From NCBI GenBank assembly GCA_020725805.1, contig DYEF01000046.1, forward strand, positions 36,573 to 100,572: DNA of 64,000 bases, in the 5' to 3' direction. Below, piece by piece: positions 7,384 to 47,814 of this stretch (position 1 is its first letter; each line of letters starts with the position of its first letter). The DNA comes from Bdellovibrio sp. (GTDB lineage Bacteria > Myxococcota > SpSt-1050). Both the position numbers and the translations under genes were made by a program. Under the pieces are notes generated by a model that saw nothing but the letters and a program-made list of their open reading frames with translations, searched no databases and was not told the origin of the DNA.

Positions 7384-8631
7384 CTATCTGATTCTCACTT
7401 TTTTAATAAAGAAAGATGCCATAATCTGTTTGATTCTGTTTATGAGATGATATTTCTTCCACAGAAAGTCTCCGACCTCATCTCTTGCGGCAAAGACTTT
7501 TGACTCAAGCGGTGTAACAATTATACTGACATTAATCCCCGGGGCAAGCCCTACCGGGATATTGTTTTTTATCATACTTACATAGGCAAATCCGAGTATT
7601 TCGCTCATCGTCCCGAAAGACGGGGGTCTCTCTGTCTCCATATCGGACCCCTCAAGCGGCCTGAAGACACAGATCGTGGGGAATGCCCCCAGACCGGTAA
7701 TTCTCTGAATGATCTTTTTTGTCTCATCCGTACTCTCTATTCCGGCAATGATCTCTCCCGAGACAGAGCCGGCAGGGAAAATCCTTGCACAGTATTCTAT
7801 GGCATTAAGATATTCTCTGTGGCCTATATCAGCATATTTTCCGGGGCATACTTTTTTGAAATATTCTTCACTTCCGAATTCGATACAGAATGACATATGG
7901 TCAGCGCCGGCATCCCTTAATCTGTCATATACGGTTAGGTCTCCGAATGGCGGAAACTGAACACCTGTAAGGAGCCCGGTATTCTTCCTGATTTTACCTA
8001 TCAGCCCGATAAATTCTTTTGGATCCCTGATGGCATTGTATCCGCTGTTGAAGTGAACGAATGTTATATCGCACTCCTTCTTTGCCTCTTCGATTACTTC
8101 CAGAATATCGGTTTCGGATTTTTCGATCTCTTCGTTCTTACCTACATTTATACCTGTTGTACAGAATCTGCACCTTCTTGAGCTGTTCCCTTTCCAGAAT
8201 TCGCAGATCCCTCCGACATATACTGATAAAAGGCTTCCCTGCATTACCCCGATTCTCGACATCTGTTTCCCCGATGAGGTCTTCTTTTCATAAAAGGCGG
8301 GAGGGGTGAAGATTTCTATGTCAAAATCCGAAAACTGATTTAGTGTCTCGTTGACTACCCTTATTCTGCCGTCCTTTTGCGTGAGTATATAGGGCGATTC
8401 CTGTGCAAACTTCTCCCTGACAGGGGCATTTACGCGGATTATTTTGTCAAAAATCAGTTCGATTCCCGAACCGAGTCCCGCTCTTGTCCTGAAGATTCTG
8501 AGGGAGCTGTTCTCCCTGAGGGAGTCGTCGATTCTGAGTCCCTTGCAGAAGATGTCGAGTTTCAAAAGTATCGGATTTTTCAATATGTCTGATTGTGTTA
8601 TGCCGGTCATATTCTGCTTCCAGAAAGACAA
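7384..8631 (-). CDS. Radical-SAM-like protein with atypical Cys motif (C-x10-C-x2-C)
   Basis: GGICEFWKGNSSRRCRFCTTG, then radical-SAM-core-like elements: VHFNSGYN, GADHMSFCIEFGSEEYFKKVCPGK, GEIIAGIESTDET. The canonical CxxxCxxC is absent. Lies 9 nt upstream of the TSUP gene. Confidence 0.45.
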   Translation of the reverse strand: MSFWKQNMTGITQSDILKNPILLKLDIFCKGLRIDDSLRENSSLRIFRTRAGLGSGIELIFDKIIRVNAPVREKFAQESPYILTQKDGRIRVVNETLNQFSDFDIEIFTPPAFYEKKTSSGKQMSRIGVMQGSLLSVYVGGICEFWKGNSSRRCRFCTTGINVGKNEEIEKSETDILEVIEEAKKECDITFVHFNSGYNAIRDPKEFIGLIGKIRKNTGLLTGVQFPPFGDLTVYDRLRDAGADHMSFCIEFGSEEYFKKVCPGKYADIGHREYLNAIEYCARIFPAGSVSGEIIAGIESTDETKKIIQRITGLGAFPTICVFRPLEGSDMETERPPSFGTMSEILGFAYVSMIKNNIPVGLAPGINVSIIVTPLESKVFAARDEVGDFLWKKYHLINRIKQIMASFFIKKVRIR

Positions 8632-8817
8632 AAGAGTTCTTTACAAAGCAAAGCCATATTAGTCAAGGATTAATAAATGGTCCTTTGGATTCCCTGTAAA
8701 TTCCTGTAAGGGAAATCAGGAACCCGGCTCTTTTTGCCAAAGGGGAAAATAATGATGAAAATAATTGAATTGCCGGAATTATTCGGATAGTAATCATCAG
8801 AAGGGCGGTTTTGCGGT

Positions 8818-9873
8818 ATGAAAGAGTCCAACGTACCCGGATTGATAGATTTAAGAGCAGTAAACAGAATGCTCCGACGATATAATGCCGGTCTTTTAAA
8901 AAGATATCTCGGACGAACGGTCTGTGACAGCGTCAGGATTGATGCGGATGTGCTGAACAAGGGGATATTTACTCCGCTCTCAGACTTTCTCGGCCGCGGG
9001 GGAAAGAGGTGGAGGGTCTCTCTTTTCGATACTGTTCTTAAGATAACAGGCGGCAGTAAGGAGAGATACAGGAAATATTCTGTCATAACCGAACTTATTC
9101 ACAACGGGACTCTTATGGCAGACGATATAGAGGATAACTCCCCGATGAGGAGAGGGCTTCCCGCACTTCATTTGATATACGGTACTGATATAGTCCTCAA
9201 CCTCTCTCAGTTTCTGTATTTCTTCCCGCTCATTGAACTTCCGGAGCTTAAAGACAAGGACCTCAGGTCGAAACTGATGAACATCTATATAGAGGAGATG
9301 ATAAAGCTCGCATCCGGACAGGCTGTTGATATTGTCTGGCACAAAGGACTGTATGATATAGGGAAAATAACAGTCAGGGACTACCTCACTATGTGCTCGA
9401 TGAAGACCGGATCTCTTGCAAGGATGTCGGTAAGGATGGCTTGTGCATTTGCCGGCACTGACAGGTCAAAGGAACGTTCTCTGGCCGGTTTCGCCACTGC
9501 GCTCGGAATCGCTTTTCAGATAAGGGATGATATCCTCGACATTACGGAATCCGGTCTTTCGGCGAAGAAGGGTGGTACAGGTAATGATATTACCGAGGGG
9601 AAGATAACGCTTGTGGTTCTGAGAACGTTGAAAGTGGCAGACCGCTCTGACAGGAAAAGACTCCTTGGCATTCTTATGGCTCATACGAGGGACCGCAGAA
9701 AGATCATAAAGGCTCTGGATATTATTCAGCGATATGACGGTATCAGCTTCTCGCTTGAGACTGCCAGATCTGTTCTAAAAAGGTCTTTTTGTGGCCTCAA
9801 AAGAGAGTTTTCCGAAAATAAGGTAAAAAAACTGAGGGAGTTTGCTGATTTCTGTCTGAACAGAGACGTATAA
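8818..9873 (+). CDS. Polyprenyl (geranylgeranyl/farnesyl-type) diphosphate synthase
   Basis: First Asp-rich motif LMADDIEDNSPMRRG and second Asp-rich motif FQIRDDILD, about 350 aa. Classic trans-isoprenyl diphosphate synthase signature. Confidence 0.85.
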   Translation: MKESNVPGLIDLRAVNRMLRRYNAGLLKRYLGRTVCDSVRIDADVLNKGIFTPLSDFLGRGGKRWRVSLFDTVLKITGGSKERYRKYSVITELIHNGTLMADDIEDNSPMRRGLPALHLIYGTDIVLNLSQFLYFFPLIELPELKDKDLRSKLMNIYIEEMIKLASGQAVDIVWHKGLYDIGKITVRDYLTMCSMKTGSLARMSVRMACAFAGTDRSKERSLAGFATALGIAFQIRDDILDITESGLSAKKGGTGNDITEGKITLVVLRTLKVADRSDRKRLLGILMAHTRDRRKIIKALDIIQRYDGISFSLETARSVLKRSFCGLKREFSENKVKKLREFADFCLNRDV

Positions 9874-9900
9874 ATATCTGAACCGGCTTTTTTTATTCCT

Positions 9901-10827
9901 CTAAAAGATATACGAGAGCATAAATCCTATCTGTAAAGTAAACATAAGATAGTACATATGGTGCCAGCTGGGATGATTTTCTGTAAGTTTTTCGAACGGG
10001 TCCTTGTCTATCATTCTGACGACGAAATGTCCCCAGACGGTACAGATGACTCCGAGGGAAACGAGCAGATACCTGTTGCCGGTGAAATAGCCTGATAATG
10101 TGAGAAGAATAATCAGCAGGAAGGGGAGTGTATAGAAGGGGTAGATAATCTTTACGGTCAGGTCCTTTCCGTACATGACCGGGAGGGTGTTGCAGCCGTT
10201 CGATTTATCCCCTTTTATATCTGCAAAGTCCTTGCTGTTTGTGGCGCCGAAGAGAAAGAGACCGAATATCAGTCCTATGAACCACGCCTCGGGGAGCAGG
10301 ATAGACTTCGTGACAGACCATCCGGCGACCTTCAGAAGGATGCCCCGCGGTATTGCGATTGTCAGATTCGCAACCCATCCGTTCTTCTTGAATCTGAAAG
10401 GAGGTGCGCTGTAGAGGATTGTGGCAACCGCTGCCGCAAGAAACATCAGAAAGCATCCGGTGTTGATAAGCAGGGTTGAAAATACAGAGACAATATATAG
10501 TATCAGGGAGAATAATTTTGCCTCTTTTATGCTCATATCTCCTCTGACCAGGACGCGTCCGGGCTTGTTGATACGGTCGATTTCGATATCATATATCTGA
10601 TTGAGTACGTTCGATGCCGCATTCAGAAGGGATGCCATAACAGATGCTAAAGCGATTTTGATTATCCACAGTTCGGTTGTTTCCGAGTTGTGGGTAAATT
10701 TCGGACTTGCCCCGTAGGCAGTAATGGCTCCGCTTATTATCCCGAGGGCAGGGGCAATGAGGGTAAAGGGACGCATAATTTCTACGTATATTCCAACCGG
10801 ACTTTTTGAAGTCTTTCTATCTGTCAT
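9901..10827 (-). CDS. UbiA-superfamily membrane prenyltransferase
   Basis: NVLNQIYDIEIDRINKPGR (NxxxDxxxD motif) and KDFADIKGDKSNGCNTLPV (second Asp-rich motif), about 8-9 TM segments. Start overlaps the stop of the upstream radical SAM gene by 11 nt. Confidence 0.85.
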   Translation of the reverse strand: MTDRKTSKSPVGIYVEIMRPFTLIAPALGIISGAITAYGASPKFTHNSETTELWIIKIALASVMASLLNAASNVLNQIYDIEIDRINKPGRVLVRGDMSIKEAKLFSLILYIVSVFSTLLINTGCFLMFLAAAVATILYSAPPFRFKKNGWVANLTIAIPRGILLKVAGWSVTKSILLPEAWFIGLIFGLFLFGATNSKDFADIKGDKSNGCNTLPVMYGKDLTVKIIYPFYTLPFLLIILLTLSGYFTGNRYLLVSLGVICTVWGHFVVRMIDKDPFEKLTENHPSWHHMYYLMFTLQIGFMLSYIF

Positions 10828-12343
10828 ACCATTTTGGCTTGTAGAGGAGGTGGTAGTTCTTCGGGTCGAGCGGATTGAGTCTCATGTAGAGATTTCTAAG
10901 ACCTACCTTTGAAGCCACAAGGAGCCACCAGATATACATATTTCTCTTGTATCTGTATTTTGAGGTAAGCCCTTTTACTATCCAGTCAAGCTGCAGGTAT
11001 TCGGATGTTATTTCAGCCGTTATGTCGAGTATCTCCTCTCTTGTAAGATACTCTGAATCCATAACGGGTGTACTCCAGTCGAATTCGTCGAAGGATATCT
11101 CTTTTAGCCAGCCGTTGGTAATAGCCTCGTCGTACATAACTGTCCCGGGCACAGGTGTCAGAGGATGGAATGCCGGAAAGTCGAGTCCGAGCCCCTTTGC
11201 ATATTCTCCGAGTTTTTTCAGAGACTCCCGGCTCTCTTTTCGGTGCCCCACAATGAAAGTGCCCTGCAGGAAGACCTGAGGGTATTTCCGTCTGAAAATA
11301 CTGATTACCTCTTCGGTCACGGACGGTTTGTAGAATTTCTTGTTGAAAGAGTCCAGTACGTCCTTTTCGACCCGCTCAATCCCGATACATATATGGACGA
11401 GACCGGACCTTACCATCTTCTCGAGTATCCCGTTTTTCTCGTCCCTCAGAAGGCAGTCCGCGCGCATAAAGGCAAACCACCAGACGGGGAGATTCTTTTT
11501 AAGAAGGAGTCCGGCGAATCTCTCATTCCATTCAGGGAGCAGATTGAACGAATCATCTACGAAGATCATCATTCTTTTGTTGTGAACCCTGTAGAGGTAT
11601 TCTATCTCTTCGACCGTATATTCCGGACTTTTGGTCCTGAACCGGGGAATCAGCTTTATCTTCCCGTTTTCGATTCTGCGCTCGGCGTTATTGACCCAGA
11701 AGGCACAGAACGAGCATTTTCCTGTGCAGCCCCTCGAGTGATGGATTGTGGTCCCGCCGGGGGAGAAGAGATAGTCGGACTTTCCGTAGAGATGCATCGG
11801 AAGCATATCGTATGCGGGCAGAGGGAGTGAATCCAGATTCTCAATAAGAGGTCTGGGCTCCGTCATAATAATTCCGGAATCCCGTCTGAAGGCAATCCCC
11901 TTTACCTTCTCCACGTCGCCGGGTTTGTCTCTCAGATAACTGACAAGTTCCAGAAGAGTCTCTTCCCCCTCGCCAATAACAATATAATCGACGACATTTG
12001 AGGAGAGGGTCCACTCAACGGTATTTGCAAAATGGGTCCCGCCGGTAATCGTGATGATATCTTTATCTATTCCCTTTGCGAGTTTGAGTACCCTGAGTGC
12101 CTCGGATGCATACATCGAGTGATTCTCCCCGACTGCAACAATGTCGGGCCGGTAGTCTATTATCTCTTTTGCAAGGGATTTATAGCCGATATGGAGCGGA
12201 AGGCAGTCGAGTATTTTCGTCTCAATCCCCGCTCTTCTGAGATAAGCCGCAAGGCAGATTAGGTTCTGCGGGACGAGATAATTATCCTGCTCGTGAATAA
12301 AAGGCCAGAAGGCCCTCGGGCCATGTATGAACATTACCTTCAT
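10817..12343 (-). CDS. B12-binding-domain radical SAM protein (paralog A)
   Basis: N-terminal Rossmann-like B12 domain (ITGGTHFA, VIGEGEETLLEL), then HHSRGCTGKCSFCAF (CxxxCxxC). ATGA overlap with the upstream paralog B. Confidence 0.9.
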   Translation of the reverse strand: MKVMFIHGPRAFWPFIHEQDNYLVPQNLICLAAYLRRAGIETKILDCLPLHIGYKSLAKEIIDYRPDIVAVGENHSMYASEALRVLKLAKGIDKDIITITGGTHFANTVEWTLSSNVVDYIVIGEGEETLLELVSYLRDKPGDVEKVKGIAFRRDSGIIMTEPRPLIENLDSLPLPAYDMLPMHLYGKSDYLFSPGGTTIHHSRGCTGKCSFCAFWVNNAERRIENGKIKLIPRFRTKSPEYTVEEIEYLYRVHNKRMMIFVDDSFNLLPEWNERFAGLLLKKNLPVWWFAFMRADCLLRDEKNGILEKMVRSGLVHICIGIERVEKDVLDSFNKKFYKPSVTEEVISIFRRKYPQVFLQGTFIVGHRKESRESLKKLGEYAKGLGLDFPAFHPLTPVPGTVMYDEAITNGWLKEISFDEFDWSTPVMDSEYLTREEILDITAEITSEYLQLDWIVKGLTSKYRYKRNMYIWWLLVASKVGLRNLYMRLNPLDPKNYHLLYKPKWYDR

Positions 12344-13746
12344 TTCAGCATCGCATAGATTCCGTAAAGCAGATTTTTCGGAGTAATGGTCCTGATGACG
12401 AAGAGGTGTCTGAAGACCATTTTGAGCCTCAGATAAAATCTCCTTGTTGCTATTTTCTGAAGATACAATAGTCTCTCGGCGGAGATTCTGTCCGTTGCCA
12501 GTGCCATCTTTGAGGGGTCGGGGTTGAAGGTTGTGAAATTCTCCCAGTCCTTTCTGTTCAGTTTTCCGCCCGATGAGAGCATATCGTATAACTGAGAGCC
12601 CGGAAAAGGGACGGTTACTGCAAACTTTGCAAAATCCACATCCGAATCGATAGCAAATCTGATAGTCTCTTCTATCTCCTCTTCCGACTCGTCCGGGAGT
12701 CCTATCATAAAGAGTCCGACAATATGAATCTTCTCCTCGTGCGCTGTCCGGATTATTTCTCTGGTAAGCTGGAGGTCGAGCCTCTTGTTTATGGAGTTGA
12801 GAACCCTCTGACTACCGGATTCTATTCCGAAGAGCAGTCTTCTGGCGCCGGCACGGTACATCAGGTTCAGAAGTTTTTTATTGAGTCTGTCGGGCCGTGT
12901 CTCTGATATCCATACGACCTTTTTATTTATCCCCCTTCTGATTAGTTCCTCGCAGAAGAGGGTTGTATGTTCTTCCTCGAACGGAAATATCGGGTCGATA
13001 AAACCGACCTGCCTTACATTGAATCTTTTATGCAGATATTCGAATTCATCTGCGATCGATTCCGGTGACCGCTTTCTGTAGATCTTTCCCATATAGTCAA
13101 GGGAACAGTATGTGCATCTGTACGGACATCCCCTCGAGCCGGAGACTGAGAGCGTAGGTTTTGCGATATCGGCAAAGGGGAGCATTCCGTATGATTTATA
13201 GGGAAAGAGTTCCCACGACGGAAACGGAAACGAGTCCAGATTTCTCGGAGGTTCCCTGTCGCCGGTATTAACTGTAGTACTTCCTTCCCTGAAAGCAATC
13301 CCCTTTATCTCCCTCAGAGGTTTTTTGCCTGTTATTGCGCTGATTATCTCAACAATGCTCTCTTCCGCCTCGCCGTGTGCAATTATATCGGCAAGTCCGC
13401 TTCCGAGAAAATCCTCATAAAAGAGACTTGCGTGGATTCCTCCGAGAATAATTTTTGTGTCTTTATTCTGTTCCCTGATTATTTTGCACATATTTTCGAC
13501 AACGGGTGCCGACGGTGTGAGAGTGGTAATGCCGACGATGTCGGGCTGAAAAAGAAGAAGTCTCTTTTTCAGGTCGTCATACGAGAGTTCCTGCCCGAAA
13601 TAATCCATTACCTCGACTTCAAGTCCCTCTCTTTTCAGGATAGAGGCAATGTAGGCAAGTCCTATACAGGGCATTGCCTGCAGGAGTTTGGAAAATCTTC
13701 CAAATCTGTCCTTGACTATTGGCGGATTGATCAGTAGGGCGCGCAC
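12340..13746 (-). CDS. B12-binding-domain radical SAM protein (paralog B)
   Basis: GTG start, MRALLINPP. ILGGIHAS, AHGEAEESIVEI, SGSRGCPYRCTYCSL. The C-terminus DFAKFAVTVPFPGSQLYD closely resembles paralog D. Confidence 0.9.
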   Translation of the reverse strand: MRALLINPPIVKDRFGRFSKLLQAMPCIGLAYIASILKREGLEVEVMDYFGQELSYDDLKKRLLLFQPDIVGITTLTPSAPVVENMCKIIREQNKDTKIILGGIHASLFYEDFLGSGLADIIAHGEAEESIVEIISAITGKKPLREIKGIAFREGSTTVNTGDREPPRNLDSFPFPSWELFPYKSYGMLPFADIAKPTLSVSGSRGCPYRCTYCSLDYMGKIYRKRSPESIADEFEYLHKRFNVRQVGFIDPIFPFEEEHTTLFCEELIRRGINKKVVWISETRPDRLNKKLLNLMYRAGARRLLFGIESGSQRVLNSINKRLDLQLTREIIRTAHEEKIHIVGLFMIGLPDESEEEIEETIRFAIDSDVDFAKFAVTVPFPGSQLYDMLSSGGKLNRKDWENFTTFNPDPSKMALATDRISAERLLYLQKIATRRFYLRLKMVFRHLFVIRTITPKNLLYGIYAMLK

Positions 13747-15305: not shown

Positions 15306-15534
15306 ACAATACCTTTGCTTTTCATAATATAATGTCAAACACAGACAAAAACAACATTAAATATTGAATAACATATCCTAAATTCAAATCACAGGAGTGG
15401 CAGCTTTTCTTTGTTATAACTGAGAATGCGGATGTCCGGTACCTGTGCCGAAGTCAATCCCGACGATAGAATTTGCTTTACACAAAGTGGTTTGCCATAT
15501 ATCATTTTGCTATTCTGATTAAGGAGGTTTTGCC

Positions 15535-21059: not shown

Positions 21060-21575
21060 TTAGCCTGTTGAGGTTATGCAAAAATTTACAGATAGTTCTT
21101 CCGTAACCAGGTAAACCCTCTTTTCCGATAATTGCTTGCACGGTTTTAACGATGGTATTTCCCCTTCTCCGTCAATTACAAAATCGATAAAGTGAAATAT
21201 TGACAAAATCTCTTTTTTGAAAACCGATGCTGTTATACCACCAAGCACCACAACGGAATCGGGATAACCCTCTTTTATGGTTTTTGCCAGCTCAATTACA
21301 TCGCAGATCTGGTAATGCCCCATAAGGGATAATCCATATATCCTTGCCCTGCAGTCTCTGAGAATTTCTTTGTTTTCAATACCTGTGTTTTTAAGTCTCA
21401 TTAAACCCGTATGGAGTATCTTTGTCCTGAACCCGTTCTTTGTAAGTATGTCTGCAATTGAAAATAGTCCCGTTGGTATGATGTTGATAAATTCCGTTTT
21501 ACCAAGAGGATGGAAGTAATGATTAAGTTTGGGCGTATGAATCAGAACACAATCATATGTCCATTTGTTATCCAT
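21060..21575 (-). pseudogene. Remnant of a B12-binding radical SAM gene (B12 domain only, radical SAM core deleted)
   Basis: The 171-aa ORF has the B12-domain landmarks (VVLGGITASVF, VIDGEGEIPSLK) but ends about 25 aa later with no CxxxCxxC. Only about 130 nt remain before the next gene. Flanked by AT-rich non-coding DNA (20929-21059 and 21576-21655). Confidence 0.6.
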
Positions 21576-28835: not shown

Positions 28836-28967
28836 TTTGACCTCCATCTTAAGCAGAACGCATTAATAATTACATTACATATAGTAAAAAAGCAAATCAT
28901 TTTTAACAGACTGTAAAAAGCCGTATTCGGGAAACAAGTCGGTCCGGCAATTATTCGTTCCGGTTTC

Positions 28968-37029: not shown

Positions 37030-37030
37030 T

Positions 37031-38593: not shown

Positions 38594-38612
38594 TTTGTGC
38601 AAGGAGGTATTT

Positions 38613-39392: not shown

Positions 39393-41879
39393 ATGAAAAT
39401 ATCTCTTGTCATCCCCTGTTTTAATGAAGCGGATATCATATCCAGTGTTATCGGAGATTTAGAAAATTCGCTGAAGAAATACGGTTTTGAGGAGACTGAG
39501 ATTATCTTTGTTGATGACGGGAGTAAGGATAATACGGCTGATATTATCCGCTCTTCTTCGGTCCCGAATCTCAGACTAATTCCGACCGGGCATCTGGGAC
39601 TTTCCCACGCCCTTTTTACAGGCATAAAGGAGGCGACGGGAGATATTATCGTAACTATCGATGCAGACGGACAGTTCTCATTTGATGATGTCCCGCGTTT
39701 TATAGAGACACTTATAAAAAACGACGCCGATATTGTCACAGGTTACAGAATAAAAAGAAACGATAATCCAGTCAGGGTAATAAGCTCGAAGTTTGCGAAT
39801 TTTGTCAAGAGGGTGATTCTTAAAGACGATATCTATGATTCTACCTGCACGCTTAAGGCATTCAGAAGAGAGGTCAGGGAGAGGATTCTGTACGGATTCG
39901 ACGGATTTCACAGGTTCATTCCGTCTTTTGCCCTGATGAATAACCTGAAACTCATTCAGATTCCTGTTGAACACAGGGACAGGCGCGGAGGTAAGGCAAA
40001 GTTCGGAATTATTAACCGTCTTCCGGATGTGATACCCGATGTTCTGGGAGTAAGATGGCTGCAATACAAACGTTTTTCGACTGATGCAGACGAGAGGAGA
40101 TACTCCTTCTATCCAGACCTGCTCTTTCTTCTGCTCTTTCTTTATGTCGCATCAGGATTGTTTGGCGGATACTTCAGGGTTGTGGACGATTTCTGGCTTT
40201 ACGGCTCTCTCAACCGCTTCATCGGGTATGATTACTCAAAGAGTTACGGATGGGAGAACTTCGTCTTCAACGAGATTGTTCCTCCCTTAATCAGGCTCTT
40301 CTATGCAGTCGTTATGAACCTTGGCAGACTGCTCGGAGTAAAATATCCCCTTGAGTGGGCAAATAAGGTTATCGGTATTTCAGTTACATTTTCGTCGTAC
40401 TTTCTCTTTGGCAGATTCTTTAATCTCTTTTTCAGAAGAAATTACGCAAAGTGGATTTCCCTGCTTATTGTATTCTGGGGTATTTCGTCTTCGGAAATCT
40501 ACTCGGGGCTTGCAAGGTCATTCTCCTATATACTCATTCCGTTCCTGCTTATATTCTCACGGAATTTGTCAGTAATAGGACTTTCTGTAATTTCCTTTCT
40601 GACGGCCCTTATCTATCCCGTGCTACTCCCTCTCTTTTTCCTGACGATTCTCCTGACGTATCTGTTCGGCAATATAAAAAGCATTTATAAATCGGCAGTT
40701 CCTGTAATATCCGGACTGGCAGGGCTTTTGCCTATGGTATACAAAATAAATCTGATGTCTTTTAGTCCGGCAACAGAGGGAGACACCTTTCTGGGCAAGA
40801 ATAATATCTTCAATCTGCATATTTCATCTGATTTCGGTCTTCTCTTCGGATTTACAAAGGACATAGGTTTTATAGAGTGGATAAATTTCAATTTTCTCCA
40901 CCAGTGGATACTTAATGATGAACTGACTGCTATTATAAGATTATCACTGATTGTTTTTCTTTTGTCTGGAATTTTCAGAAGGCTAAGCGGCAACAGTAAG
41001 AGCCATGTGGATATTTTCGTTTTTCTGTTTACTGTTCTCTTTTTTCTGCTCGCACTCCACAGGAGGGAATATGTCGATTTATCGTACCTTTTCAAGTGGG
41101 GTCTGCTCTTGTCGGCCGTTTATACCGTTGCAGGTATTGTAAAAACTGATGATTTGAGAAGATATAAGACAGTATTCGTTTTTGCTCTCTCGTCGCTGGT
41201 GGCCTTCTTTATAACACATGTCCTGTCAAGAAAGTTTGGTTTCGGGGTTCACGAGCCCGGAAGACAGCTCCAGAGGGCTTTTGCAGTAATCTTTCCCTTT
41301 GCAGCATCGGTCTTTTATTTCAATGTGTATAAGAGTACGGGCGGATACAAAAGAGCGCTTGTTATTGTGCTTATATGTCTGACAGGAATCCTCTTCTTCC
41401 CGAAGCTGAAACTTGTCTCGCCCAATGACAAATATGTAATCGAGAGGTTACAGGGACTTCCGAAGGGTAGTCTTGTCCTTTCTCACCCTCTTACTGCCAA
41501 CTGGGTGGTCAGTCATACAGACAAGTATTCAACGATTATTGACGAGCAGATTCGTGCCACGAAGAAAAATCCTATAAGAGGGTCTGAGGAGAGGATTATG
41601 CCGACAGAGATGACGGCAATCGTTCTAGAAATCTATTACGGAAAGAATCTCGAGAAGGTCTATGACTGGTGCAGCAGTAATCAGAACGGCTATATTCTGG
41701 TTGAGGAATACTATTATTCTGACCAGTTTTTTAATACAAGAAGGGAACCGTATATAAGTTTTGTCGAGAGACAGAATCCTGAAAGGAGTTTTCCTCTTTT
41801 GGGTATTCCGCTGAGTCTCAGGCATCCGGTAACTCCCGAAACATTTCTTCTTTCCTGTAAAGAGTTGACCATCAGATGA
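39393..41879 (+). CDS. Fusion protein: polyprenyl-phosphate GT2 (DPM1/ArnC-like) N-terminal domain plus ~550-aa polytopic membrane domain
   Basis: KISLVIPCFNEA, IIFVDDGSKDNT, VTIDADGQF motifs in the first ~230 aa, followed by many TM segments and a soluble C-terminal ~150 aa. Confidence 0.75.
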   Translation: MKISLVIPCFNEADIISSVIGDLENSLKKYGFEETEIIFVDDGSKDNTADIIRSSSVPNLRLIPTGHLGLSHALFTGIKEATGDIIVTIDADGQFSFDDVPRFIETLIKNDADIVTGYRIKRNDNPVRVISSKFANFVKRVILKDDIYDSTCTLKAFRREVRERILYGFDGFHRFIPSFALMNNLKLIQIPVEHRDRRGGKAKFGIINRLPDVIPDVLGVRWLQYKRFSTDADERRYSFYPDLLFLLLFLYVASGLFGGYFRVVDDFWLYGSLNRFIGYDYSKSYGWENFVFNEIVPPLIRLFYAVVMNLGRLLGVKYPLEWANKVIGISVTFSSYFLFGRFFNLFFRRNYAKWISLLIVFWGISSSEIYSGLARSFSYILIPFLLIFSRNLSVIGLSVISFLTALIYPVLLPLFFLTILLTYLFGNIKSIYKSAVPVISGLAGLLPMVYKINLMSFSPATEGDTFLGKNNIFNLHISSDFGLLFGFTKDIGFIEWINFNFLHQWILNDELTAIIRLSLIVFLLSGIFRRLSGNSKSHVDIFVFLFTVLFFLLALHRREYVDLSYLFKWGLLLSAVYTVAGIVKTDDLRRYKTVFVFALSSLVAFFITHVLSRKFGFGVHEPGRQLQRAFAVIFPFAASVFYFNVYKSTGGYKRALVIVLICLTGILFFPKLKLVSPNDKYVIERLQGLPKGSLVLSHPLTANWVVSHTDKYSTIIDEQIRATKKNPIRGSEERIMPTEMTAIVLEIYYGKNLEKVYDWCSSNQNGYILVEEYYYSDQFFNTRREPYISFVERQNPERSFPLLGIPLSLRHPVTPETFLLSCKELTIR

Positions 41880-43213
41880 TTGACAGAAACGATATCTTCC
41901 CGCTGATAATTATTCTGGCTATTTCTGTAATCCTCTTTGCTCTCTTTCTGCACAAGAGACCGTTTACGGACGAAGGTTCTTTCTGCACCATTGCACAGGC
42001 AGTATCAAAGGGAGCAGTGTTGTACAAAGATATTTATAATGAAAAGGCCCCGCTTCCTTATCTGATTGCATCGGTTTTTGTTGGCCTCGGAGAGAATCCG
42101 CTGATCGTGTTACGGGTCGTAGCCTTTGTGTTCTTTCTCGCTTCTGTCTTTTTGCTATATCTGCTCGGAAAGATAAATCTCTTGCAGCCTCTCGAAAATA
42201 CTGTGGTGTCATGCTTTTATATTATTACAGCGCCGCTCTTTCAGTCGTTTAATTTCACATCCGAGATTCTTGCGCTCCCTTTAATTCTTTTTATTGTATG
42301 GCAGGTAAAGAGGGACGATGACGGCAGGATAAATATTCTGACCGGATTCTTTACCGGTATGCTCATATTCATCAAGCAGCCTTTTATCTTTTTTATCCTT
42401 CTTACTCTTCTCTTTGCCCTTCTATCGAAGAATATGAGGAAGAATTTTCTTGCCGGTCTGATATTGTCGCTGCTGTTTCTCGTTCTTTTGCTGAAATATA
42501 AAGGAATATTAGGACCGTTTATTGAAAACACCATATTTACCCTCAAGAGATACGACATAAAATCATATATGAGACTCCCGTATCCGAATGAGTATTATCA
42601 GTTTGCCCTGCTGGGATTTGTGTTTCTGGCATCGGTGTATTCGTTTGTAAGAAGGTCGACCGGTCTTTATGAGTTTTTGGCAGTATTAAGCCTGCTCATA
42701 ATGGGAATTGTGAGAATGGATGCCTTCAAGATGCTCCCGTTCTTTGCGGTTATGTTTTATGTAATTCTGAGAAAAGAGATAGCCGGCAGTATTAAAAATA
42801 CAACATTCGTTATGGTAATGCTGTCCCTGATGTCGTTATGGCATTACAGGGAGATTCTCGAGCAGCGCTTCGACCAGATTAAGGCCATCAGTTATACGAT
42901 AGAGGCAAAGACCGGTCCTCAGGAGAGTATCTGGGTAGGTCCGCACGAGGCCAATATATACTGCCTTTCGAAGAGGAGACCTTCTTCGAAATACTTCTTC
43001 CTTCTGCCGTGGATAAACAAGCCTGAGGTTCTGCTGACCCTTGGAGAGGACCTGACAAGAAGAGACCCTCCTGCGTGTATCGTGGATGTCTCTGCCTTCA
43101 ATAAAGCCACAGAATATCATCTGAGCAGTATGCTTCCGGAGCTCGGTATAATAGTAAAGGATTACATGGAGGTTCACGAGATAAGCGGGGCGATTATTTA
43201 TTGTAAAAAATAA
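41876..43213 (+). CDS. GT-C fold membrane glycosyltransferase (ArnT/PMT-like)
   Basis: 445 aa, polytopic. The first loop, KRPFTDEGSFCTIAQAV...YNEKAPLPYL, is typical of the ArnT/PMT family. ATGA overlap with the upstream GT2 fusion. Confidence 0.6.
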   Translation: MIDRNDIFPLIIILAISVILFALFLHKRPFTDEGSFCTIAQAVSKGAVLYKDIYNEKAPLPYLIASVFVGLGENPLIVLRVVAFVFFLASVFLLYLLGKINLLQPLENTVVSCFYIITAPLFQSFNFTSEILALPLILFIVWQVKRDDDGRINILTGFFTGMLIFIKQPFIFFILLTLLFALLSKNMRKNFLAGLILSLLFLVLLLKYKGILGPFIENTIFTLKRYDIKSYMRLPYPNEYYQFALLGFVFLASVYSFVRRSTGLYEFLAVLSLLIMGIVRMDAFKMLPFFAVMFYVILRKEIAGSIKNTTFVMVMLSLMSLWHYREILEQRFDQIKAISYTIEAKTGPQESIWVGPHEANIYCLSKRRPSSKYFFLLPWINKPEVLLTLGEDLTRRDPPACIVDVSAFNKATEYHLSSMLPELGIIVKDYMEVHEISGAIIYCKK

Positions 43214-43225
43214 CGGAGTATTGAT

Positions 43226-43504
43226 ATGGAACTGAAAAACCTTGATTTCTGGCTTGTCTTCGGATTTCTGGGACAGGCATTTTTCTTTATGAGATTCTTT
43301 GTTCAGTGGATTGTGAGTGAAATAAAAAAGAAGAGCACTATACCTAATGCATTCTGGTTTCTGAGTCTTCTCGGAGGAATAACTCTATTGATATACGCTA
43401 TTCACAGACAGGACCCTGTATTTATTATCGGTCAGGCGGGCGGACTTATTATCTATTTCAGAAATATTATGCTGCTCAAAAGAGAGGCAAAACCGGCAAA
43501 ATGA
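43226..43504 (+). CDS. Lipid-A-disaccharide-synthase N-terminal (LAB_N) domain small membrane protein
   Basis: 92 aa, 3 TM. WLVFGFLGQAFFFMRFFVQW ... WFLSLLGGITLLIYAIHRQDPVFIIGQ matches the LAB_N domain pattern as I recall it. Confidence 0.6.
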   Translation: MELKNLDFWLVFGFLGQAFFFMRFFVQWIVSEIKKKSTIPNAFWFLSLLGGITLLIYAIHRQDPVFIIGQAGGLIIYFRNIMLLKREAKPAK

Positions 43505-44943
43505 ATTTTCTCTTTATACAGGATACGATAGACTCCGAATCCATAGGCCTTGCATATATTTCGGCAGTTCTCAAAAAGGCAGGACACCGCACAGAGTTGT
43601 TCATTGCATCCCTTGAAGACAGACTCTTTGAGAAGATCCGTGATTTTTCACCGGACGCGGTTCTCTTTTCGGTTATTATAACGAAACAGGATTACTATGA
43701 CAAACTGGGCAGGGAACTGAAGAGACGTTTTCCCGGCATAAGAATAATAGCAGGCGGGCCTTATGTTACACTCAAGACGTCTTTTGCGGAAAACGATTGG
43801 ATGGATTTCGGAGTAATCGGTGAGGGAGAGGAGGCCACCGTCGAACTGGCTCAGGCTCTTGAAAAAGGACTTGATATCAGAGGCATTAGGAACATTATAT
43901 ACAGGGAAGATGGCAGAACCGTTGTCAACGAACTGCGTGAACTGAACGAAGATCTGGATGCTCTTCCGCTTCCTGACAGGTCCCTCTATCTGAAATATAA
44001 CTCATTCAGAAATCTGACTGTCAAACGTTTCATCAGCGGCAGGGGGTGTCCTTATTCCTGTACCTTCTGTTTTACGAGAAAACTCAGGGATATGTACAGC
44101 GGAAGGGGAAGGTATATCCGCAAGCATTCAGTCGAAAGGGTGTGTGAAGAGATTAATCTTATGAGAAGGGAATCAGTTGTAAAGACAGTCCATTTCTCTG
44201 ATGATATATTCCTGACAGACTCGAAATGGCTGACGGAGTTTTACAATGTATATCCCGGAAAGGCCGGAGTACCGTTTCAGTGCAATCTGACAGCCAATAT
44301 TATCAGCGAGGAGACGATAAGGCTTCTTAGCGAGTGCGGACTGAGGGGTGTCGGAATCGGGCTCGAATCCGGAGTCGAGAGAATCAGAAACAGTGTTTTG
44401 GGGAAGAGATTCTCGAACGAAGAAATAATCAGGGTTTCGGAAATTCTTCATAAATACAATGTCGAAATCTATACCTACAATATGATAGCGCTTCCCGGTG
44501 AAAAGATAGATGATGCAATCGAAACGCTGAATCTGAATATCAGGATGGGCGTTAAGATTACGCAGTGTAATATCGCAATTCCCTTTGAGGGTCTGCCCCT
44601 TACGGATATGGCCGTTGAACAGTCTTTGCTGAGCGATAATTCTGTTGTGTCGCAGATGAAGAGGAGGCCCGAATCACCGATCATAAAGGTCGAAAACCCC
44701 GAACAGTATGAGCGGCTGTTTTTACTCTTTCCCTTCCTCGCAAGGATAAGGGCAGGTAATAAATTGATAAAGACACTTGTCAGACTCCCGCTGAATTTTG
44801 TTTACAGATTGCTTCACAGGATTAGTTATTTTTTGAATATGAAGAAGTATTATGATATCTCTCTCTTTTCGGGACTGAGGATTTTTCTGGATATCAGGAA
44901 AGGGGAGCGGTATCTCAGGAAAGTGTTTAGGCAATGGCTCTGA
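43501..44943 (+). CDS. B12-binding-domain radical SAM protein (paralog N)
   Basis: IAGGPYVT, VIGEGEEATVEL, ISGRGCPYSCTFCFT. ATGA overlap with the LAB_N gene. Confidence 0.9.
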   Translation: MNFLFIQDTIDSESIGLAYISAVLKKAGHRTELFIASLEDRLFEKIRDFSPDAVLFSVIITKQDYYDKLGRELKRRFPGIRIIAGGPYVTLKTSFAENDWMDFGVIGEGEEATVELAQALEKGLDIRGIRNIIYREDGRTVVNELRELNEDLDALPLPDRSLYLKYNSFRNLTVKRFISGRGCPYSCTFCFTRKLRDMYSGRGRYIRKHSVERVCEEINLMRRESVVKTVHFSDDIFLTDSKWLTEFYNVYPGKAGVPFQCNLTANIISEETIRLLSECGLRGVGIGLESGVERIRNSVLGKRFSNEEIIRVSEILHKYNVEIYTYNMIALPGEKIDDAIETLNLNIRMGVKITQCNIAIPFEGLPLTDMAVEQSLLSDNSVVSQMKRRPESPIIKVENPEQYERLFLLFPFLARIRAGNKLIKTLVRLPLNFVYRLLHRISYFLNMKKYYDISLFSGLRIFLDIRKGERYLRKVFRQWL

Positions 44944-45536
44944 CGTTGTTTCTCTTTTTTTATTTTGCTGTAAATCAGCAGAATTTTCCTCTCGGATGTA
45001 TCGAGGACGAAAACAGGATTCGCCCCGACTATCCGTTTTTTACTATACCTGCCGGCAGGAAGGTTGAGACGGAAGAGGTCTGCAACTATATCCCTTCGCT
45101 TCAGAGTGATTTTATAGAAAAAATCAGGCCCCTCAATAATGCAGGGATTTTCAAAAAAGACGGTGCCGTTTCAGTGAAGAAGGGAAAGACAAAGGTCAGA
45201 AAATTCTATACAACGGAAAACCTGAGTCTCTATCCCGGCATTATTCTCGGTGATAACGAAATAAACGATAGTAACAGTCTCGTTCTTTATCTGAAGGCAA
45301 AGAGCGGTAACGGACTCTTTCTGCTCGTTCTGAGAAGTAATGACAGAATCTTCGCAAGGCAGATTATCATTGAAAAGAATACAAACTGCCCCTTGAAGGT
45401 GATTTTACCAATCGGTGATTTTTTCGAGATACCATATAAAAAAGGTGATTTTCCCCGGGATAGTTATCAGATGGAATTGTATATGCTGAATTATAATCCG
45501 GTGGAATGGATTCTTTTGGGGTTTGAGGTGAAATGA
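44934..45536 (+). CDS. Hypothetical exported protein (possible lipoprotein)
   Basis: Hydrophobic N-terminus MALTLFLFFYFAV followed by FPLGC (lipobox-like). Mostly beta-type sequence. No recognisable catalytic motif. Confidence 0.45.
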   Translation: MALTLFLFFYFAVNQQNFPLGCIEDENRIRPDYPFFTIPAGRKVETEEVCNYIPSLQSDFIEKIRPLNNAGIFKKDGAVSVKKGKTKVRKFYTTENLSLYPGIILGDNEINDSNSLVLYLKAKSGNGLFLLVLRSNDRIFARQIIIEKNTNCPLKVILPIGDFFEIPYKKGDFPRDSYQMELYMLNYNPVEWILLGFEVK

Positions 45537-46468
45537 AAAAGGGTATCTTTCTGCTTTTATATATTGTTGTTCTGCTTTTGCTCATTGAAGCGGCCTGCAG
45601 GCTTTTTATGAGCCCTGTTTATATAGGCATTGAGGACCTGAAGAATTTCAGAAAGCCCGTTAATCTTGGTGAAAACAGAGCCGGCATAAAAATAGCAATG
45701 CTTGGTGACTCCTTTACATATGGTTCGAAGGTCAACGATGAGGAGACCAGCTCTTTCTATCTTGCTGAAATATTAAGAGAGAGACTCGGAAGGGAAGATA
45801 TATATGTGGAGAATTTCGGTATATCCGGTACCTCTACGGTAGAGCAGTATTACATATTCGAAAGGTATATTAAATCCTCTGATTATGACTTTGTGGTACT
45901 GAACTTCTTTATTGATGATTTCACACCGTATTATTACAACAACTCTGTTCTCAACCCGTATATTTTCTGCAGAGAGTATGAAGAAGGAGCTGAAAGACTC
46001 TTATATTATCTGAACAGACTGAGGTTCGTTGAGATGTCAATAGTTTATACAGATTTGTTTATTACTTATATGCACGCAGGAGTTTCTTTGACACCGGTTT
46101 CTTATATGATACAGAAGATGATGGAGAAGGATTCTCTGAGATACAGATGTGCCAGGGAACTGCTGATTAAGATGGGAAAAGAGATAATACAAAGTAATAA
46201 AAAGGGTATCTTTGTCTTGATTCCATCGCTCACTTTATATGATTTTCAGAATCCCTATCCCGAAGAGATTGCCGGATACGAGACAATGGCAATGCTGACT
46301 GCAAAGAGAAGCGGTTTTGAGATAATCGATACTCTCACTGAGCTTAGAGATGTACTCGACCAGAGACTGATAATTCAGAACGATATACATTACAATGCAA
46401 GAGGATATGAACTGATTGCGAAACTGATCGCAGACAGAATTCTCGAGATGATGAAGAAACAGATATGA
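45533..46468 (+). CDS. SGNH/GDSL-family hydrolase (esterase/acyltransferase) with N-terminal TM anchor
   Basis: Block I IAMLGDSFTYGS, and block V NDIHYNARGYELIA (DxxH). ATGA overlaps on both sides. Confidence 0.7.
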   Translation: MKKGIFLLLYIVVLLLLIEAACRLFMSPVYIGIEDLKNFRKPVNLGENRAGIKIAMLGDSFTYGSKVNDEETSSFYLAEILRERLGREDIYVENFGISGTSTVEQYYIFERYIKSSDYDFVVLNFFIDDFTPYYYNNSVLNPYIFCREYEEGAERLLYYLNRLRFVEMSIVYTDLFITYMHAGVSLTPVSYMIQKMMEKDSLRYRCARELLIKMGKEIIQSNKKGIFVLIPSLTLYDFQNPYPEEIAGYETMAMLTAKRSGFEIIDTLTELRDVLDQRLIIQNDIHYNARGYELIAKLIADRILEMMKKQI

Positions 46469-47814
46469 AAAGCATACTGATTGACAAAGTAGAGACAGAC
46501 CCGCTTATTCATTACGGAGGCATCTTTAATGATATCGGGACAATACTCGTTCTGCATCTGCTCTCGTTTCTGGTCTTCATTCCTTTTGTAAAAGGAAAAA
46601 GATACTGCAATTTCCTCTTCTTTATTTCCTCTCTGATGCCGGTACTGAATATATATTACAGAAACCATCATCAGTTTGTAGGCGGAGTCTTTCTGGGACA
46701 TCTGCTGCTTATACTCGGCACTCTGTTAGTGGTCTTTCTTGCATATTGTGGCTTCGAGACTGCTGATACAAAATGGCGCATCTTCCGGGAAAAGAAGATT
46801 TTGCTCCCCTTAATCCTGATTTTCTTTCTTATCAGGGCTGTCTTTGTCTTTGGCTCAAGACCAACTGATTCCGGTATATTTTCGGGTGTTGGCGGAATTC
46901 TATATCTAAACGGCAGCTCTATGTTTAGAGACTACTGGGGCGTGGTTTCAATCGGTTCGAGATACGGACCAATGCTATACCTTGCATATCTTCCATTTGT
47001 CCCCATTGCATATATTACAAAACATCTGTTATGGGGAGATGCTCTAACACATTGGAACTCTGTCTCAGACGTCCCGCTTGCAGTTGCGACCTCATTTACC
47101 GGTGCACTTTTCTACGAGGGGCTTATACTCTTCATACTTATTAAATCGTTCAGAAAATTTGGTTACTATGTAGCACTTTTATATCTTCTGAATCCATTAA
47201 ACTCCCTCGTTCTGTCCGTAAATGCCAACGAACTGCCGCAGACCGCACTTTTTATAACGGGGATATATTTGTTGAGAAGCCCATTAAAATCGTCTCTCTT
47301 CTTCGTCCTCTCTTCTCTTATGAAGATATATCCGGTTCTCTCCGCTCTGCCGTTTGTATTTGCTTATGATTCGAATAAGAGGAAGAGATTTTTCTTCTTT
47401 CTGGTTCTCTTTTTTGCAGCAGGTTTTGGTTACTGGCTCTTTGAGGCCACACTCTCGCCACCTGAACTGAGGACCAACCCGGTAAGGGATATACTCTTCT
47501 ATCAGTCCGACCCCGGGCGTTACCATTCACTATGGTATTTTTCGGATATACTGCTCGGGAAGATTCTGACCTTATTTGTGATAACTGCAACGTCAATGCT
47601 AATCTTTATGGCCGGTTTTATGGTTTACAGAAAGAAGGGCAGATTTGCTCCGCTCAGACTCTCTGTAATAGTTGTCGCTTTATTGATAATAACCAACCGC
47701 TCCCCGCACCCGGGATATTATTACTTTATGCAGACCCTGCTTTTTTATCTCTTTTTCACATTTCAGGAGGAGCTAGGCGGGCCGGACCCAAAGGATGTCG
47801 GCGGTATTCCCTGA
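46465..47814 (+). CDS. Polytopic membrane protein, GT-C/DUF2029-like putative glycosyltransferase
   Basis: 449 aa with more than 10 TM segments. GSRYGPMLYLAYLPFVP-type loop. Last gene of the coupled plus-strand operon. Confidence 0.45.
   Translation: MKSILIDKVETDPLIHYGGIFNDIGTILVLHLLSFLVFIPFVKGKRYCNFLFFISSLMPVLNIYYRNHHQFVGGVFLGHLLLILGTLLVVFLAYCGFETADTKWRIFREKKILLPLILIFFLIRAVFVFGSRPTDSGIFSGVGGILYLNGSSMFRDYWGVVSIGSRYGPMLYLAYLPFVPIAYITKHLLWGDALTHWNSVSDVPLAVATSFTGALFYEGLILFILIKSFRKFGYYVALLYLLNPLNSLVLSVNANELPQTALFITGIYLLRSPLKSSLFFVLSSLMKIYPVLSALPFVFAYDSNKRKRFFFFLVLFFAAGFGYWLFEATLSPPELRTNPVRDILFYQSDPGRYHSLWYFSDILLGKILTLFVITATSMLIFMAGFMVYRKKGRFAPLRLSVIVVALLIITNRSPHPGYYYFMQTLLFYLFFTFQEELGGPDPKDVGGIP

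Follow-up and report, generated by a model that had tools for sequence, protein, structure and literature searches.

Introduction

Class B (cobalamin-binding) radical S-adenosylmethionine (SAM) enzymes that act on lipids have precedents in HpnP and HpnR, GrsA and GrsB, and Hgm (PMC13459092; bioRxiv 10.1101/2023.10.20.563219), while radical SAM enzymes that act on glycolipid head groups have precedents in HpnJ and in the calditol synthase Cds (PMC13459092). In the tetraether lipid clusters, B12-radical SAM enzymes cyclise, bridge or methylate inert lipid chains, and Cds remodels the sugar of a glycolipid (PMC13459092). Anaerobic candidate phyla, Omnitrophota among them, have been reported to carry homologs (bioRxiv 10.1101/2023.10.20.563219; PMC13459092). 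For the candidate ladderane clusters of anammox bacteria, a phytoene-desaturase-like enzyme together with a B12-radical SAM enzyme has been proposed (PMC13459092, PMC2649909). Here, we analyzed a 64,000-nt stretch of Bdellovibrio sp. DNA from contig DYEF01000046.1 (hereafter, the window), which carries a cluster of about 40 kb (7384-47814) encoding thirteen class B radical SAM paralogs (named A to E and G to N), a SPASM radical SAM enzyme, a CrtI-like flavoenzyme, a set of glycosylation proteins and, at one edge, isoprenoid genes.

We report that this cluster, carried by an uncultivated bacterium of anaerobic type, is genuine and conserved. All of its parts point to chemistry at the cytoplasmic membrane, and the radical SAM enzymes most likely functionalise unactivated carbons without oxygen. 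As a tentative first choice, to which we give somewhat less than an even chance, the cluster would encode a conserved pathway in which a lipid or glycolipid anchored in the membrane is tailored by radical chemistry in several oxygen-independent steps. Each of the enzyme families has been described before; what is new is their combination and scale, with thirteen class B radical SAM enzymes alongside a CrtI-like enzyme and a set of family 2 (GT2) and C-fold (GT-C) glycosyltransferases. An earlier reading of the letters alone (the sequence-only reading) was aware of no described pathway with such gene content, and we found none in the literature either, including a 2026 review of lipid-modifying radical SAM enzymes.

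Results

The cluster encodes thirteen putative cobalamin-type radical SAM enzymes

The open reading frames (ORFs) of the window were searched with Pfam at gathering scores and with NCBIfam at curated cutoffs, and distant pairs were compared by hhalign. The sequence-only reading had proposed thirteen ORFs of 423-508 aa, each with a radical SAM motif, and a motif search recovered every quoted GCxxxCxxC string exactly, between 10817 and 44943. Seven of the genes lie on the minus strand: A (10817-12343, GCTGKCSFC), B (12340-13746, GCPYRCTYC), C (13899-15338, GCPNRCVFC), D (18148-19527, GCPYKCSFC), E (19531-20928, GCPYSCIYC), G (21656-23065, GCPFGCKFC) and H (26753-28231, GCVHNCSFC). The plus strand carries I (29006-30499, GCPYNCSYC), J (31511-32989, GCPYECIYC), K (32949-34310, GCPYNCYFC), L (34307-35578, GCPFGCRFC), M (35578-37029, GCPFRCRYC) and N (43501-44943, GCPYSCTFC).

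All thirteen proteins contain the CX3CX2C core and match Radical_SAM (PF04055) with 60-104 bits. The N-terminal B12-like domain, also proposed beforehand, was recovered in 12 of the 13, which match both B12-binding (PF02310) and PF04055 above gathering score. For L, Radical_SAM is the sole Pfam match; in hhalign, its N-terminal 185 residues match the N-terminal domains of its sister proteins (97.9% probability, E 3.9e-13), so that its own domain is divergent but homologous to theirs. The GGxH and GEGE landmarks turned out to be common rather than universal, each being present in 8 of the 13 (GEGE counted as exact). On these grounds we assign the thirteen paralogs to the predicted cobalamin-type class.

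Since pairwise identity among the paralogs is only 20-35%, they are separate enzymes of ancient origin and not the outcome of recent duplication. All thirteen were scanned against the NCBIfam equivalogs, and all stay below every curated cutoff. The best scores were 243 bits against BchE (TIGR02026, paralog B; cutoff 481), 201 against HpnJ (TIGR03471; cutoff 578), 120 against HpnR (TIGR04367; cutoff 650), 142.5 against the ladderane-type B12-radical SAM model (TIGR04072, paralog K; cutoff 360), 119 against the class B C-methyltransferase of ribosomally synthesised peptides with post-translational modifications (RiPPs; TIGR03975, cutoff 282), 160 against ApyD (NF050148; cutoff 750) and at most 93 against TIGR04190 (cutoff 500). 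HpnJ is the top NCBIfam match, below cutoff, for C, L and N. Membership of characterised clades had been set as a check on the proposal, and the paralogs lie outside every characterised family model tested.

The subfamilies that had been drawn by eye were recovered in part. In a neighbour-joining tree with bootstrap, in which orthologs from other loci were included, B/D (96%) and I/N (74%) stood, E/G/J was weak (26%; E with J 43%) and C/M was unsupported. In a full HMMER scan, the subfamily of M has at least 150 representatives at 50% identity above 240 bits. A 402-aa ORF on the plus strand (13935-15143) runs antisense to C; given the strong family matches and conserved orthologs of C, it is almost certainly spurious.

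Gene order is conserved in related genomes

Relatives of the locus came from protein homologs and their contigs; the SPASM protein as a query in the genome scan returned none. A Logan contig (L002) and a JGI contig (L003) were reached through homologs of the SPASM enzyme, L175, of the same lineage as L003, through a CrtI-like homolog, and the metagenome-assembled genome (MAG) GCA_026416255.1 (L010, labelled 'Deltaproteobacteria bacterium' by NCBI) through a UbiA homolog with 78% identity. L002 (70-88% identity) and L003 (41-63%; 63% for the ortholog of G) show the same gene order as the window. The right half is syntenic in L175, where genes for a GT2, H and a lipoprotein are followed by those for the SPASM enzyme, J, K, L, M, the CrtI-like enzyme and a lipoprotein, and then by those for the GT2 fusion, a GT-C protein, LAB_N, N, a 200-aa protein, the SGNH hydrolase and a 449-aa membrane protein, with N and the last three at 46-65% identity. 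L010 supplies the left half in window order, namely F, D, a transmembrane (TM)-anchored protein, DUF4388, C, B, A, UbiA and an isoprenyl diphosphate synthase (IDS), and its orthologs of A, B and C are 83-87% identical. Overall, protein identity is about 80% in L002 and L010 and 42-65% in L003 and L175.

The order I-SPASM-J-K-L-M is kept in L002, L003 and L175, but I is missing from L003 and L175. Gene content varies slightly: besides the missing I, F is truncated in the window and E is specific to its genome.

As a control, we examined 80 neighbourhoods of generic ArnC-like GT2 genes, and none of them holds a class B radical SAM gene. Searching metagenomes with the 828-aa GT2 fusion, through generic GT2 motifs, returned unrelated GT2s at 42% identity or less, and served as a negative control only. 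Among UbiA neighbourhoods (the best 80 of the genome-scan loci, 45-61% identity, 10 kb to either side), class B radical SAM matches occur near UbiA in one locus only (L013), and these are weak, at 44-45 bits. Because class B radical SAM genes are so rare in both sets, their co-localisation in this cluster is not chance. A chance pile-up of paralogs had been raised beforehand as a concern, and the co-localisation is conserved in three further metagenomic lineages or samples.

A 2.5-kb contig of JGI sample 3300001095 encodes a SPASM protein identical to that of the window, placed between I and J, so that this sample holds the same organism or a near-identical strain.

A core with a CrtI-like enzyme recurs across phyla

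The SPASM/twitch radical SAM enzyme (347 aa; 30480-31523, plus strand), already recognised in the sequence-only reading, is confirmed by Pfam and by an AlphaFold2 model with a pLDDT of 91.9. Its CX3CX2C motif starts at residue 31, and it scores 39 bits against Tes (NF045702; cutoff 450) and 43 of 225 bits against HpnH. The Foldseek neighbours of the model, at a TM-score of about 0.6, span SkfB, MoaA, BlsE, anSME, viperin, SuiB and GDGT-MAS, a range that does not discriminate between substrates; DesII is also among the neighbours.

Downstream, and overlapping M by 14 nt, lies the gene of a predicted CrtI-family flavin adenine dinucleotide oxidoreductase (37016-38533, plus strand; PF01593). It scores 53 of 283 bits against HpnE, and its best PDB matches are 4dgk and 4rep, the former aligned over residues 225-498, the C-terminal half. 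The family is rare, with 36 homologs at E < 1e-20. Characterised CrtI-family members act on hydrocarbon chains.

Relatives of this enzyme at 27-29% identity sit among B12-radical SAM genes, with a small GT2 gene nearby, in Elusimicrobiales and Omnitrophota. The Elusimicrobiales locus (L173; GCA_031082205.1, JAVHLJ010000004.1 14017-35567) encodes three B12-radical SAM enzymes, five other radical SAM enzymes, three CrtI-like proteins, a GT2 and an NTP_transferase; an M20 peptidase and an aminotransferase are encoded there as well, and the 20-kb cluster probably represents a sister pathway. The Omnitrophota MAG (L174) encodes five B12-radical SAM enzymes, a CrtI-like protein, a PMT_2-TPR protein and a GT2. 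Best-match scores and the neighbour-joining tree place M orthologs in both loci (100% bootstrap). An H ortholog is found in Omnitrophota (100%), with a further Elusimicrobiales member at 66%, and a J-like gene in Elusimicrobiales is less secure (62%). Judged by these trees and domain matches, M, H and, less securely, J recur in more than one phylum in the company of a CrtI-like enzyme and a small GT2, joined in Omnitrophota by a putative PMT_2 GT-C protein. This looks like a recurrent, previously undescribed type of cluster.

More distant homologs of the SPASM enzyme (32-37% identity) come from an ENA/JGI lineage, an Omnitrophica MAG and a possibly archaeal contig, and their loci carry class-B-like radical SAM genes alongside genes for NAD-dependent sugar epimerase/dehydratases. 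Two of them (L004/L005 and L008/L009) also encode a 235-aa GT2 and several PMT_2 GT-C proteins, and L004/L005 an ArnD-like deacetylase. These sugar epimerases, GT2s, GT-C proteins and the deacetylase favour a glycosylation system in which the radical SAM enzymes, and possibly the flavoenzyme, would modify the sugars of polyprenyl-phosphate sugars or nucleotide sugars by C-methylation, epimerisation, deoxygenation or ring contraction. GT-C enzymes would then transfer them, outside the membrane, to a glycan, a lipid A-like molecule or a protein, possibly the Cys-rich lipoproteins of the cluster, and IDS and UbiA would be unrelated neighbours. Action of class B radical SAM enzymes on sugars is established for GenK and Fom3. 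The NTP_transferase of the Elusimicrobiales locus, the full set of GT2, LAB_N and GT-C genes in the window, the presence of BlsE and DesII among the structural neighbours of the SPASM enzyme and the separability of the UbiA module are all in keeping with such a system. However, genes for nucleotide-sugar synthesis and for epimerases are lacking from the window cluster, the conserved cross-phylum partner of M, H and J is a CrtI-family enzyme, A and UbiA are translationally coupled, and thirteen radical enzymes are very many for the sugars supplied by only two GT2s. We therefore consider a dedicated sugar-tailoring system rather doubtful, and place it second to lipid or glycolipid tailoring.

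The cluster includes a putative glycosylation set and two lipoproteins

Domain searches bore out the interleaved genes named beforehand, namely IDS, UbiA, the CrtI-like flavoenzyme, two ArnC/DPM1-type GT2s, LAB_N and the SGNH hydrolase. The small GT2 (26049-26756, minus strand) matches PF00535 with 67.5 bits and ArnC with 60.7 (cutoff 529). The second (828 aa; 39393-41879, plus strand) combines a GT2 domain (104.6 bits; ArnC 95.5 against 529) with a 590-aa polytopic membrane domain. The best matches of both are all polyprenyl-phosphate sugar synthases (ArnC, PgfS, PpgS and DPM-type), below equivalog cutoffs. Three to four GT-C-like proteins had been proposed, and two of these candidates are supported: 24565-26076 (minus strand; PMT_2 E 0.005, below gathering score; hhalign 96.5%) and 41876-43213 (plus strand; PMT_2 E 7e-5, below gathering score; hhalign 94%), both compared by hhalign with PMT_2 proteins from a related locus. 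Two others are the TM-anchored proteins described below, and Pfam and hhalign gave no support to a GT-C identity of the 449-aa polytopic membrane protein (46465-47814, plus strand; syntenic in L175) or of the 590-aa C-terminus of the GT2 fusion. The small LAB_N membrane protein (92 aa; 43226-43504, plus strand) scores 112 bits with its family and weakly matches MtN3/SWEET. Two further plus-strand genes encode the 200-aa protein (44934-45536), syntenic in L175, and a TM-anchored SGNH/GDSL hydrolase (45533-46468) identified by Pfam.

Two Cys-rich lipoproteins with a lipobox and no Pfam family are encoded within the cluster, one at 28212-28847 (minus strand; conserved in L002, L003 and L175) and one at 38595-39377 (plus strand; 82% identity in L002, 33% in L003 and L175). 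They could be acceptors, chaperones or structural partners. Conserved, secreted and Cys-rich, they also invite the idea of a RiPP-like system, in which the radical SAM enzymes, in the manner of PoyB/PoyC or sactisynthases, would methylate or cross-link a ribosomal peptide or these lipoproteins. Peptides with cysteines are frequent substrates of SPASM enzymes; the structural neighbours of the window enzyme include SkfB, anSME and SuiB, and the sub-threshold model matches include ApyD and rSAM_ocin_1. Nevertheless, we largely reject this idea, because the intergenic gaps hold no precursor-like small ORF (LAB_N being the sole small ORF), the SPASM motif at residue 31 leaves no space for an N-terminal RiPP recognition element, and the class B RiPP models are missed widely (at most 119 of 282 and 160 of 750 bits). 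In addition, no protease, cyclodehydratase or exporter was found among the ORFs scanned, and lipoprotein signal peptides are atypical for radical SAM substrates. Peptide modification is thus very improbable.

The gene types listed as absent from the cluster in the sequence-only reading (RiPP precursor, protease and cyclodehydratase genes, fab and polyketide synthase (PKS) genes, nucleotide-sugar synthesis genes, and Wzx, Wzy and ABC exporters) are indeed absent from every ORF scanned. According to the ORF listing, overlapping genes form tight operons in the cluster. An Rfam search returned no riboswitch and no other RNA family, and promoter and terminator sites past the last gene are no more frequent than in shuffled sequence.

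Elsewhere in the window, a 726-aa TPR protein (192-2372) has predicted TM segments at about residues 250-365 and 553-687, flanking TPR repeats at 410-499; it recalls the GT-C-TPR fusions of L174, and its Pfam match is to the TPR repeats only. On the other side, large secreted proteins are encoded downstream of a two-component system (54278-59148), namely an 817-aa Lcl_C/InlB-B-repeat protein and a 771-aa protein with 99 cysteines and Dickkopf_N-like repeats.

A prenyl module and a remodelled segment lie on the left side

Three genes form the left edge of the cluster. The atypical radical-SAM-like gene noted earlier (7384-8631, minus strand; CX10CX2C instead of CX3CX2C) scores 166 bits against NF045502 'variant_rSAM', above the cutoff of 125. 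It is followed by the trans-isoprenyl diphosphate synthase gene (8818-9873, plus strand; PF00348, 184 bits), whose product has IdsA_Meth as its best NCBIfam match (155 bits, below the cutoff of 468), with DDIED as the first Asp-rich motif and small residues at positions -4 and -5. The UbiA-family prenyltransferase (9901-10827, minus strand; PF01040, 143 bits) is encoded by the last gene of the C-B-A-UbiA operon, in which A and UbiA overlap by 11 nt. It scores 100 bits against DGGGP synthase (cutoff 296) and 119 against chlorophyll synthase (cutoff 313). A PDB search at E <= 0.01 returned DGGGP synthase (6m31, 73 bits), chlorophyll synthase (62 bits) and AfUbiA, and nothing else. A role as a DPPR-synthase-like sugar loader was considered and rejected at the sequence level, there being no match to Rv3806c (PDB 8j8j).

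UbiA relatives are encoded in 571 of the 599 pattern-matched stretches of the genome scan, in Acidobacteriota, Eisenbacteria, Krumholzibacteriota, Planctomycetota and delta-proteobacterial MAGs. In L014, L055 and L077 the variant radical SAM gene stands next to a UbiA homolog, and in L073 the two are a few kb apart; IDS is paired with UbiA in L010, L013, L014 and L073. The trio is joined to class B radical SAM genes only in the window and in the separately fetched L010 (78-87% identical).

Some of these neighbourhoods deserve separate mention. A different radical-SAM-rich one (L011/L013; MAG MFD02416.bin.1.415, contig_75228), with a UbiA at 61% identity, encodes an IDS, a fatty-acid desaturase, a 342-aa radical SAM enzyme, two B12-radical SAM enzymes and a 705-aa radical SAM-PhyH fusion, with an HxsD-type system upstream. 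In the Eisenbacteria loci L015 and L026, genes for a SurA-like peptidyl-prolyl isomerase and a C25 peptidase lie about 2.5-6 kb downstream of UbiA. In L015, three more genes about 2.5 kb from UbiA make up an ArnC/ArnA/ArnB-like trio, encoding a GT2, an NAD-dependent epimerase/dehydratase and, as the third, a DegT aminotransferase; of these, only the GT2 and the aminotransferase were confirmed in L026. The trio is a weak hint of an envelope-glycan context. A Myxococcota homolog (P0124) is labelled 'chlorophyll synthase ChlG' by NCBI, probably an over-annotation. Clustering of UbiA neighbours in high-GC genomes was noisy from spurious ORFs; an NAD-dependent epimerase recurs and is weakly usable.

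To the right of C, the segment 16597-21575 stands out in composition, with a GC content at third codon positions (GC3) of 0.32-0.43, as against about 0.47-0.59 elsewhere, and in its low conservation in L010, where D (58%) and the TM-anchored protein (60%) compare with 83-87% for A, B and C. GC3 is 0.39 in D and 0.315 in E, the lowest value in the region. The B12-only remnant described beforehand is real: F (171 aa; 21060-21575, minus strand), what is left of a fourteenth paralog, retains a B12-binding domain only (PF02310, 37 bits) and is 57% identical to the N-terminus of the full-length, 493-aa F of L003. The L010 gene beside D, cut by the contig end, groups with the F of L003 (100% neighbour-joining bootstrap). 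No ortholog of E was found in L010, and among the loci compared E is specific to the window genome. Because E has the lowest GC3 and lacks an L010 ortholog, and because F directly adjoins D in L010, whereas E stands between them in the window, this segment of 16.6-21.6 kb was remodelled recently, and E appears to have been inserted where F was truncated.

A DUF4388/PATAN protein (15535-16590, plus strand; PF14332, 45 bits), conserved in L010, precedes this segment. The segment itself begins with the gene of a TM-anchored protein (16597-18078, plus strand; conserved in L010), which has N-terminal TM helices followed by a soluble C-terminal domain of large size; a second protein of this kind (23112-24575, minus strand; 85% identity in L002, 51% in L003) has no Pfam family match. 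The two are homologous to each other (hhalign 90.8%). Beta-propeller matches of the former are far below threshold (E 0.04-0.2) and the latter has none; both are possibly beta-propeller-like.

Such a layout raises the question of whether two unrelated systems abut here, the IDS-UbiA-variant radical SAM group (perhaps with A, B and C) and a core running from H to the 449-aa membrane protein, with the remodelled variable segment of D, E and the F remnant between them. The UbiA module alone is found in other genome-scan loci, and the intervening 16.6-21.6 kb has low GC3, a truncated paralog and a gene, E, that is absent from a close relative. The 24.5-47.8 kb core is syntenic in L003 and L175, and the parts read of these contigs showed no orthologs of A, B, C or UbiA; however, the left ends of the L003 and L002 contigs lie outside those parts, so that absence of UbiA there is not shown. 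Class B radical SAM genes are present in all parts of the locus, G, F and the TM-anchored protein join the left side to the core in L003, and the left-hand order is identical in L010. A composite locus is accordingly unlikely, and we rank it below sugar tailoring and above peptide modification.

Discussion

Our model for lipid or glycolipid tailoring, which heads the ranking of the four readings, proceeds as follows. The CrtI-like enzyme would desaturate or saturate a hydrocarbon chain, most likely an isoprenoid. Unactivated carbons of that chain, of the sugar head group or of the two together would next undergo site-specific C-methylation, cyclisation or C-C coupling by the class B radical SAM enzymes. 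The GT2s would load sugars onto polyprenyl phosphate, the candidate LAB_N protein may help to flip the carrier, and the GT-C enzymes would transfer the sugars outside the cytoplasmic membrane, following a 'three-component' logic. Tentatively, supply or prenylation of the lipid may in this lineage fall to the C-B-A-UbiA operon together with the neighbouring IDS.

Several observations weigh against this model. No paralog can be assigned to a specific reaction, and the CrtI-like enzyme scores 103 bits against TIGR02734, whose cutoff is 238. Among the window ORFs there is no squalene/phytoene synthase (SQS_PSY) that could partner the CrtI-like enzyme, no squalene-hopene or other cyclase, and no GGGP synthase, Tes/Mss, fab or PKS gene; none of the predicted window enzymes defines the lipid scaffold. 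Because UbiA with the variant radical SAM gene, and sometimes IDS, recurs alone in L014, L055, L073 and L077, the trio is a separable module at the cluster edge that is widespread without class B radical SAM genes. Its sole tie to the radical SAM battery is the C-B-A-UbiA operon, with its order kept in L010. Finally, the distant SPASM loci, without isoprenoid genes and with sugar enzymes, point to sugar chemistry.

Given that the companions of the radical SAM genes are a CrtI-like enzyme, a GT2 and GT-C proteins, and that sugar epimerases occur in the distant loci, an isoprenoid chain is not clearly a more plausible target of tailoring than a sugar or the head group of a glycolipid; the two are about level. 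The proposal that set out from the sequence-only reading, multi-step tailoring of an isoprenoid or polyprenyl-phosphate-linked envelope lipid or glycoconjugate, is partly supported. It keeps its footing in the conserved cluster and in the GT2, LAB_N and GT-C set; its isoprenoid anchor is weakened, and the emphasis on isoprenoids should be softened.

There is a real chance that the product belongs to a new class of compounds. A bolder proposal, to which we give less credence than to a composite locus, is that this cluster and its Elusimicrobiota and Omnitrophota relatives make, in strictly anaerobic uncultivated bacteria, membrane lipids or glycolipids of a class not seen before, heavily C-methylated, cyclised or cross-linked, with one regiospecific step for each of the thirteen or more cobalamin radical SAM enzymes. 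If true, such a pathway could account for orphan sedimentary biomarkers of anoxic settings, whose enzymology or source organisms are missing. The producers and methylases of highly methylated ('overly branched') tetraether-type or irregular isoprenoid lipids are still unknown (PMC11868695). That M, H and J accompany a CrtI-like enzyme and a GT2 in three phyla of uncultivated anaerobes suggests that some envelope lipid or glycoconjugate is widespread and has so far escaped chemical observation. Were the product a lipid, it could provide new biomarkers or explain orphan ones from anoxic sediments; were it a glycan, three-component glycosylation would extend to radically tailored sugars. Few large enzyme groups are as little characterised as the class B radical SAM enzymes, and the thirteen deeply diverged members found here, none of them assignable to a known function, would offer co-functional enzymes of a single conserved pathway for reaction discovery.

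The comparison with known systems shows partial likeness to four of them. The candidate ladderane clusters resemble the window in their proposed pairing of a phytoene-desaturase-like enzyme with a B12-radical SAM enzyme, there for the anaerobic functionalisation of a hydrocarbon chain; however, they are centred on acyl carrier protein, FabF and FabZ, absent from the window, and the ladderane mechanism is itself unproven. With the archaeal and bacterial tetraether clusters (Tes, GrsA/B, Hbs/Gms, Hgm/Gmm and Cds; bioRxiv 10.1101/2023.10.20.563219, PMC13459092), the window shares a SPASM/twitch radical SAM enzyme beside B12-radical SAM enzymes. Those clusters are without GT-C, GT2 and CrtI-like genes, whereas the window is without ether-lipid or tetraether genes. 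For Hbs, the published description is that of an 'extended AhbD homolog' carrying a COG4001 domain. The window SPASM enzyme, at 347 aa and close to the 339 positions of the AhbD model, probably lacks the Hbs extension, judged by length, as COG4001 was not searched for.

The three-component systems (GtrB/GtrA/Gtr*, ArnC/ArnEF/ArnT and CsbB/GtcA/YfhO; PMC11127046) combine a GT2, a small membrane protein and a GT-C enzyme, a series that the window may reproduce with its putative polyprenyl-phosphate-sugar-synthase-type GT2s, with LAB_N, which could flip the carrier, and with its PMT_2-like GT-C candidates. In contrast to the window, none of them is known to sit among thirteen class B radical SAM genes and a CrtI-like gene; the flippase candidate here is LAB_N rather than GtrA or an SMR protein, and the window GT2s fall below the equivalog cutoffs. 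The hpn cluster also combines a CrtI-family flavoenzyme (HpnE), a GT2 (HpnI) and a non-B12 radical SAM enzyme (HpnH), with class B radical SAM enzymes for methylation of the lipid (HpnP/HpnR) or for rearrangement of the sugar head group that it bears (HpnJ; PMC13459092). Unlike hpn, the window has no squalene synthase or squalene-hopene cyclase, and its GT2s appear to be of the polyprenyl-phosphate-sugar type; to the shared enzymes it adds the thirteen paralogs, the putative GT-C enzymes, LAB_N and UbiA, all of which hpn lacks.

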